Origin: Escherichia coli
GTDB taxonomy: Bacteria > Pseudomonadota > Gammaproteobacteria > Enterobacterales > Enterobacteriaceae
Assembly: GCF_003334385.1 (NCBI RefSeq)
Contig: NZ_QOWN01000167.1
Length of the DNA stretch: 548 nucleotides
Reading direction: 5' to 3' (one strand)
Position numbers and translations under genes: made by a program. Positions 1 through 548 of the stretch are shown here, one piece after another. Position 1 is the first letter of the stretch; each line of letters starts with the position of its first letter. Under the pieces are notes generated by a model. That model was not told where the DNA came from. It did not search any database and saw nothing but the letters and a program-made list of their open reading frames with translations.

Positions 1-60
1 TGTGCAGCCATTTTGTCCGCAGCCATCTGTCTGGCCGTATCCGGTGCGCCTGCATGGGCG
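1..60 (+). other. Signal peptide coding segment (partial; N-terminal charged region lies upstream of the window), with predicted signal peptidase I cleavage after A-W-A, so the mature protein starts at the Ser codon at 61..63
   Basis: A hydrophobic core ([14 protein letters not shown]) is followed by a helix-breaking Pro and an A-x-A motif (APAWA) at codons 46..60, then a polar mature N-terminus (SEQQ). This is the standard Sec signal-peptide architecture for outer-membrane proteins. Confidence 0.8.
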
Positions 61-548
61 TCTGAGCAGCAGGCCACACTGAGCGCAGGGTATCTTCATG
101 CCCGTACGAACGCTCCCGGCAGCGATGATCTGAACGGGATTAACGTGAAATACCGTTATGAGTTTACGGACACGCTGGGGCTGATTACGTCATTCAGTTA
201 TGCCAACGCTGAAGATGAGCAAAAAACGCATTACAGCGATACCCGCTGGCATGAAGATTCCGTGCGTAACCGCTGGTTCAGCGTGATGGCGGGGCCGTCT
301 GTGCGCGTGAATGAATGGTTCAGCGCGTATGCGATGGCGGGTATGGCTTACAGCCGTGTTTCGACTTTCTCCGGAGATTATATCCGCGTAACTGACAACA
401 AGGGGAAAACGCACGACGTGCTGACCGGAAGTGATGACGGTCGCCACAGCAACACGTCTCTGGCGTGGGGGGCTGGCGTGCAGTTTAACCCGACCGAATC
501 CGTGGCCATTGATATTGCTTATGAAGGCTCCGGCAGTGGTGACTGGCG
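1..548 (+). CDS. lom: Lom/Ail/PagC-family outer-membrane beta-barrel protein (lambda Lom-like), partial at both ends; the start codon lies just upstream of the window and the stop roughly 15-20 codons downstream
   Basis: Frame 1 is open across the entire window (about 182 codons, no stop). The translation begins with a hydrophobic signal peptide ([19 protein letters not shown]) and continues with motifs I recognise from lambda Lom and the Ail/PagC family ([68 protein letters not shown]). Aromatic and hydrophobic residues alternate in a way typical of amphipathic beta-strands. Codon usage is enterobacterial. The supplied ORF track missed it because the ORF is truncated at both window edges. 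Confidence 0.93.

Follow-up and report, generated by a model that had tools for sequence, protein, structure and literature searches.

The middle of lom, very probably: a lambdoid prophage gene in a 548-nucleotide stretch of Escherichia coli DNA

A 548-nt stretch of Escherichia coli DNA (contig NZ_QOWN01000167.1 of assembly GCF_003334385.1), called the window here at its full length, is very probably an internal part of lom, the accessory gene found in lambda-like (lambdoid) phages and prophages between J, the tail-tip gene, and stf, the side tail fiber gene. Frame +1 is free of stops over 182 codons plus 2 nt, i.e., over the whole window, and corresponds to the middle 91% of a gene of 199 codons: codons 5–186 and the next 2 nt, which belong to codon 187. 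Judged from the nearest relative, the gene starts 12 nt upstream of the window (ATG-CGT-AAA-GTT, encoding MRKV) and runs on for 40 nt beyond its 3' end (RTDGFIVGVGYKF followed by the stop), which hold the final 12 codons and the stop; both pieces are absent from the window itself. Because the window holds neither end of the gene, the start, the stop, and the intactness of the source copy are read from relatives. The gene is entered as follows:

1–548, plus strand: internal part of the lom coding sequence, from the open frame, the Pfam and PHROG matches, the match to E. coli SCU-104, and dN/dS

The assignment to the family was established by profile searches with the frame-1 translation, the check proposed in a preliminary description that had read a plus-strand Lom/Ail/PagC-family gene across the window. 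Residues 1–182 matched positions 5–186 of 199 of the Pfam model PF06316 Ail_Lom (379.1 bits, E = 6e-114), and the PHROG 108 profile "Lom outer membrane protein" was matched over its positions 5–186 of 199 (E = 1.2e-97). Among solved structures searched by sequence, the best match was lambda Lom (9wso_C, "Outer membrane protein lom", E = 1.6e-38), and OmpX (5e-17) and Ail (1e-15) were also matched. Furthermore, the protein scored 102.9 bits against the NCBIfam Rck equivalog NF011777 (cutoff 258) and 90.2 bits against the OmpX equivalog NF006917 (cutoff 176). Since both scores are far below the equivalog cutoffs, the Lom protein of the window is a family relative of Rck and OmpX and not their orthologue.

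Why, then, did a gene that fills the window appear to be uncalled? The ORF lister leaves out ORFs that run off either end, as the preliminary description had suspected, and lom runs off both. Therefore, the apparent lack of a gene call is an artefact of the window edges and not biology. "Uncalled" is right for the ORF list but wrong for the databases, as PGAP annotates the gene in thousands of genomes; the lom gene is already known and routinely annotated, as are the family it belongs to, the place it occupies, and its broad occurrence. The lesson for genome scans is that a seemingly uncalled gene can be a well-known prophage gene cut by the edges of the window.

At a threshold of 20 aa, the list contains six ORFs, five of which are 26–43 aa long. 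The sixth, the sole listed ORF of at least 60 aa, is an antisense shadow of lom:

190–447, minus strand: shadow ORF of 85 aa with a GTG start, antisense to lom

Could this ORF be a real gene, or a second gene overlapping lom? It is the only complete ORF of at least 60 aa inside the window, and it stays open in 23 of 62 distinct alleles. However, stops interrupt the remaining 39, the start is a GTG, PHROG and PADLOC searches gave no match, and a promoter-like site is absent from both scanned strands of the window. Moreover, dN/dS in its own frame is 2.3, compared with 0.11 for the plus frame over the same span, as would be expected of a frame read antisense to a constrained gene. The interrupted alleles, this ratio, and the lack of PHROG and PADLOC matches rule the ORF out as a gene for practical purposes, and we give that reading a negligible probability. 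Scans of the window for tRNAs, promoters, and terminators found none, and an Rfam scan of the window gave a match at chance level only (E = 0.19; 17 bits, where the gathering score is 50). The lambda reference record holds a comparable case, orf206b (L003 5148–5768, minus strand), a 206-aa hypothetical ORF antisense to the tail fiber gene orf-401, which is likely another shadow ORF of the same kind.

The plus frame behaves as a constrained coding sequence. Among 84 relatives, the variable alignment columns are distributed over codon positions 1, 2, and 3 as 34, 29, and 86, and the mean dN/dS between the window and these relatives is 0.19; these values directly support the view that lom is under purifying selection. 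The best match of the window is the coding sequence HHJ22_RS12240 of E. coli SCU-104, with 99.6% nucleotide identity, from which it differs at nt 471 and 540, both synonymous third-position changes. The protein is 100% identical over 182 residues to WP_016232698.1 (199 aa), which is found in Qin-locus prophages.

A less favorable reading would be that the source copy is dead, i.e., what is left of lom, truncated or frameshifted, in a prophage that has decayed, or part of a short mis-assembled contig. The window has no start or stop codon, and the nearest prophages are partly decayed, with J frameshifted and split and a tail gene carrying an internal stop in SCU-104, and L frameshifted in UTAK-1. 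However, 546 nt run without a stop or frameshift, the sole two differences from the closest intact gene are synonymous, and the 199-codon gene is intact in 84 of 84 relatives, a sample of full-length, ungapped matches. We consider a dead fragment very unlikely.

The preliminary description had also taken the gene to be carried by prophages, and the distribution agrees with this: copies of lom lie in Qin-locus lambdoid prophages, and megablast found similar DNA in 197 phage records. Phages with 93–96% DNA identity include 434, mEp460, the cdtI phage, JLK-2012, and many Stx1- and Stx2-converting phages, and the phage records annotate the product as Lom or as an Ail/PagC/OmpX-type protein. Of 5426 complete E. 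coli genomes, 4692 (86%) hold similar sequence, at a median of 2 and a maximum of 13 places per genome, and it is named there by PGAP/RefSeq as "Ail/Lom family outer membrane beta-barrel protein". Thus, lom is among the commonest prophage cargo genes in E. coli, and the 199-aa allele class was met far more often in our survey than lambda's own allele, which is the subject of the functional papers.

In a plasmid collection, lom-like DNA was found in 61 records, nearly all of them non-mobilizable, the shortest listed being 44–62 kb. These records are possibly excised or episomal prophages, or assembly artefacts. Single lom-bearing plasmid records are labelled Paenibacillus and Stenotrophomonas, which may reflect contamination or mislabelling.

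One expectation of the preliminary description, a match to lambda Lom at high identity over the full length, failed: lambda's own 206-aa Lom (the lom product of NC_001416) is only 41% identical by BLASTP. Close kinship with lambda Lom is thereby ruled out, and the class to which the window belongs is the 199-aa (434/Stx-type) class. The comparison between lambda and SCU-104 in 40-nt steps locates where the two lineages part:

508–548, plus strand: start of a block nearly identical to lambda DNA, from the identity per 40 nt of lambda and SCU-104

From the 3' end of J to window nt 507, lambda and SCU-104 are 22–78% identical per 40-nt step, and from nt 508, most steps reach 85–98%, with dips to 68–75%. 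The high-identity block, which takes in the last ~13 codons within the window, runs on through the 3' end of lom, the terminator, and the 5' part of stf (L001 8508–9200 compared with L003, the SCU-104 and lambda locus records). By this identity profile, there is a lambdoid mosaic junction relative to lambda at about nt 505–510 of the window, inside lom, as is typical of such phages. Because identity with lambda rises only downstream of about nt 508, the divergent J tip and most of lom appear to form one exchangeable block. Given the 41% identity of the proteins and the different J tip, the results obtained with lambda (the co-structure with LamB and the protection against lambda-vir) are not simply transferable to the allele of the window.

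The neighborhood of the gene is well conserved in relatives. In SCU-104, UTAK-1, and ATCC 8739, lom lies in a Qin-locus lambdoid prophage in the order tape measure, tail genes, J, lom, stf, tfaQ, pinQ, ydfK, ynfT, and ydfJ, and the order J-lom-stf is also found in lambda, 434, and JLK-2012. Among the fetched relatives, the C-terminus of J is encoded immediately upstream of lom in 81 of 83 loci, and the N-terminus of Stf immediately downstream in 82 of 84.

The exceptions and the spacers are of interest in their own right. At L050 and L078, ~2.4 kb and 0.9 kb, respectively, separate lom from the Stf N-terminus downstream of it (usually 64–151 nt), which suggests inserted DNA between lom and stf; at L072 and L080, the J C-terminus is displaced upstream. 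The J-lom spacer falls into size classes of 67 nt (43 loci) and 79 nt (22 loci), and the lom-stf spacer into classes of 64 nt (47 loci) and 151 nt (20 loci). Type III secretion effector genes or remnants lie downstream of the tail fiber genes in JLK-2012 (L005 8257–10548) and 434 (L087 6413–8546), namely, NleA and EspV; an NleB-like pseudogene, NleC, and an NleH-like gene. This location is the usual cargo region of lambdoid phages.

Is lom an autonomous "moron"? In the nearest relative, SCU-104, G+C-rich terminator-like hairpins with a T run follow both J (L001 7940–7959) and lom (L001 8615–8636), and the phage 434 record annotates the hairpins after J and after lom as terminators. A Shine-Dalgarno sequence, GAGAGG, stands 6 nt before the lom ATG of the nearest relative. 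The stretch from the upstream hairpin to the ATG is only ~29 nt long, and a search between J and lom in the nearest relative revealed no sigma-70 consensus promoter. Since the hairpins are present and such a promoter was not found, autonomous moron status is only half supported.

Some of the prophages are visibly decaying. In SCU-104 (L001 608–937 and 3014–7921), J is split and frameshifted and one tail protein has an internal stop, and in UTAK-1 (L004 473–1064), the minor tail protein L is frameshifted. Despite these tail pseudogenes, lom, stf, and tfa are intact in both prophages. An intact lom beside decayed tail genes fits selection acting on the lysogen.

To the extent that sequence and modeling can tell, the product is a secreted outer-membrane barrel. 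Outer-membrane barrels of the Ail/Lom/OmpX fold are exported by Sec, inserted by BAM through a C-terminal aromatic signal, and expose four loops outward. An AlphaFold2 (AF2) model was made for the full-length nearest relative, which is identical to the window over 182 aa, from 25 sequences including lambda Lom. The following features were read from the sequence and the model:

1–60, plus strand: most of a Sec signal peptide (full-length residues 5–24), from a hydrophobic stretch and an A-x-A motif read from the sequence

70–546, plus strand: beta-strands 1–7 of an outer-membrane barrel of eight strands, plus the first residue of strand 8, from AF2, Foldseek, and the sequence

Model strands 1–4, full-length residues: 28–40, 47–58, 63–81, and 86–106

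Model strands 5–8, full-length residues: 111–135, 141–166, 172–183, and 186–198

202–234, plus strand: most divergent segment among the 199-aa sub-alleles (residues 72–82, in extracellular loop 2 and at the outer end of strand 3)

The predicted signal-peptidase I site follows A-W-A, as read from the sequence, so that the mature protein would start with SEQQ at window nt 61; in the alignment, mature OmpX begins 2 residues past this predicted cleavage site. The model has a mean pLDDT of 85.5 and eight strands, and a low-confidence N-terminal helix ahead of the barrel (residues 2–18) corresponds to the signal peptide. In a Foldseek search of the PDB, the top match was Yersinia Ail (3qrc; E = 4.4e-18, TM 0.86 normalized by target length), followed by E. 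coli OmpX (1qj9; E = 2.3e-17). The C-terminus in the nearest relatives, which lies outside the window, reads ...VGVGYKF, and its terminal F is nearly invariant among the sampled alleles. Together, these data directly support the prediction that Lom consists of a signal peptide and an 8-stranded antiparallel beta-barrel of the Ail/Lom/OmpX type.

The variation among 65 distinct protein alleles was set against this model. At the predicted extracellular loop tips, 4 of 6 residues vary in loop 1, 3 of 4 in loop 2, and 4 of 5 in loop 3, compared with 1 of 4, 0 of 4, and 2 of 5 in the periplasmic turns. The numbers are small, and the enrichment of variability at the modeled extracellular loop tips is no more than suggestive. 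Residues 72–82 read AGDKNRQLTRY in phage 434 and a very different version in the window, in proteins that are otherwise ~91% identical; by sequence, this segment resembles a small cassette that was exchanged within a surface loop.

A further feature of the coding sequence is an inverted repeat:

84–266, strand not applicable: inverted repeat with 19-nt arms at 84–102 and 248–266, 17 of 19 positions complementary, 145 nt apart

The repeat exceeds what was obtained in 300 of 300 synonymous-codon shuffles and in 300 of 300 codon-order shuffles, and it forms in the minimum free energy fold with pair probabilities of ~0.98. Two common polymorphisms in the arms keep the pairing through G-U. However, no compensatory changes in the arms were seen among 71 alleles, the arms are no less variable than the rest at synonymous sites (by hand count, 8 of their 13 third positions vary, compared with 86 of 182 overall), and the repeat is absent from lambda lom in a hand comparison of the alignment. 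The repeat is statistically unusual, but we set it aside as a candidate for a selected mRNA structure.

What might the protein do? Two lines of thought lead from the family, one toward the phage receptor and one toward the animal host. For the first, the main evidence comes from lambda. Over-expressed lambda Lom was reported to protect strongly against lambda-vir and not against T7, a result that stands among those for barrel proteins that block adsorption (PMC12366544). The same paper describes lambda Lom as constitutively expressed from the prophage and, citing Liu et al. 2013, as rising strongly late in infection; lysogen-level Lom does not block lambda-vir in laboratory conditions (PMC12366544). 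The lom gene of phi24B is expressed with or without prophage induction (PMC3342100). In addition, the PDB entry 9wso contains chains of lambda Lom and chains of the maltoporin LamB, and J is absent from it. A literature search on the entry code found no paper describing 9wso, giving unrelated text matches only. Because both proteins are in the entry, a complex of Lom with the lambda receptor LamB is suggested.

Taking these data together, we tentatively propose the following course of events. Lom would be exported by Sec with removal of the N-terminal signal peptide, and BAM would insert it in the outer membrane through the C-terminal aromatic signal ...GYKF, leaving four loops facing outward. 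The gene would sit in the late operon, bracketed by the terminator-like hairpins, and would be expressed both in lysogens and late in lytic growth, as the papers report for lambda and phi24B. The loops that face outward would then attach to some other component of the cell surface; a phage receptor in the outer membrane is the likeliest partner, by the precedent suggested for lambda Lom and LamB. In this way, fewer sibling phage would be wasted by adsorbing to lysogens, lysing cells, or debris. That the loops of Lom bind an outer-membrane receptor and thereby lower unproductive adsorption of sibling phage is the inference we prefer, with a confidence somewhat short of an even chance.

A more specific form of this proposal would make the 199-aa class a receptor-masking barrel for superinfection or adsorption exclusion, with variable loops, notably residues 72–82, tuned to receptors other than LamB. 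We regard this specific form as unlikely. Several points weigh against receptor masking by the window's allele in general: its identity to lambda Lom is only 41%, the same Lom class lies beside at least four types of J receptor-binding tip, including the 434 type, and the loop-2 variant does not follow the J type in what is a small, biased sample. A search of PADLOC-DB 2.0 (2023, which predates the 2025 report on Lom) gave no match to a defence model at E ≤ 0.1.

We set aside as weak the idea of a match between the Lom allele, or its loop-2 variant, and the J tip. Pairwise identities of the two correlate only at rho = 0.22, in a sample that is biased because the loci were chosen by similarity to the query. 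One J tip type is common to 75 of 82 loci, the 199-aa Lom class also adjoins tips of the 434 type and of three other types, and the sole prophage with a 434-like J tip lacks the 434 loop-2 variant. Adjacency alone could explain the association between Lom and the J tip.

The second line of thought starts from relatives of Lom. Ail, Rck, and PagC are associated with phenotypes of adhesion, serum resistance, and macrophage survival. In its strict form, this reading takes lom to be a classical lysogenic-conversion virulence factor (adhesion, complement resistance, and macrophage survival) without a phage-directed role. Lom and Ail have a Pfam family and a fold in common, lom is expressed in lysogens of lambda and phi24B, it is kept intact in decaying prophages, and its amino-acid variability is concentrated at the extracellular loop tips, all of which would agree with such a role. 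Furthermore, later papers, PMC12366544 among them, credit Vica Pacheco 1997 with the finding that lambda lysogens, and Lom itself, show increased adhesion to human buccal cells. However, the protein scores below the Rck and OmpX equivalog cutoffs and is thus not an orthologue of proteins with those phenotypes, and its presence in 4692 of 5426 complete E. coli genomes, among them commensals and laboratory-type strains (e.g., ATCC 8739), is a poor fit to a specialized determinant. Moreover, the level of lambda Lom increases strongly in the late lytic cycle, and the protection it gives is specific to lambda-vir (PMC12366544), and the adhesion evidence, as cited, is one 1997 study of lambda's own allele, which is only 41% identical. 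On balance, we find the strict form of the virulence reading rather doubtful. Adhesion to animal cells or serum resistance as an alternative or additional function of Lom is likewise conceivable but somewhat improbable. For the allele of the window, the label "lysogenic-conversion/virulence gene", which the preliminary description had applied, is drawn from the family as a whole, whereas recent work on lambda Lom points to a role directed at phage, the blocking of lambda-vir adsorption (PMC12366544).

If the more specific, unlikely form of the receptor proposal held, in which the 199-aa class masks receptors other than LamB, the Lom alleles would amount to a widespread and diversifying group of proteins that block receptors, carried by most E. 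coli genomes.

How does the Lom of the window compare with known systems? The closest counterparts are the other members of the 199-aa class (434, the Stx-converting phages, mEp460, the cdtI phage, JLK-2012, and the Qin-locus prophages; WP_016232698.1 and UMO75287.1), which are the same gene, with the same length and the same position between J and stf; the differences are allelic only. Phage 434 Lom, for example, is identical at 166 of 182 residues (91%), and its differences are concentrated in residues 72–81. Lambda Lom (NP_040601.1, 206 aa; PDB 9wso) is of the same family, fold, and gene position, but amino-acid identity is down to 41% over 174 aa by BLASTP and 47% in a MAFFT alignment, its loop 1 is longer by 8 residues, and its gene is linked to a different J receptor-binding tip that is ~50% identical over the last 200 aa.

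Ail of Yersinia, OmpX of E. coli, and Rck and PagC of Salmonella are 8-stranded beta-barrels, like the predicted fold of Lom, to which they are ~30% identical. With 175 mature residues, compared with about 148 in that group, Lom has longer strands and loops, and it is phage-borne in the tail gene region, whereas the genes of the group are chromosomal or on plasmids.

A likeness of another kind, in gene position and proposed activity, is found in T5 Llp and in Cor of phi80, N15, and HK022. Both are receptor-blocking lipoproteins, and T5 Llp blocks FhuA. As with lom, a small envelope protein is encoded next to the receptor-binding tail gene, and it is proposed to prevent adsorption of phage of the same type, as was reported for over-expressed lambda Lom (PMC12366544). 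Llp and Cor, being lipoproteins, are unrelated to the beta-barrel Lom in sequence and fold, and for the window's allele the same activity is a hypothesis only. If true, masking of a receptor other than LamB by the 199-aa class would extend the work apparently under way on lambda Lom and would not represent a new kind of system.
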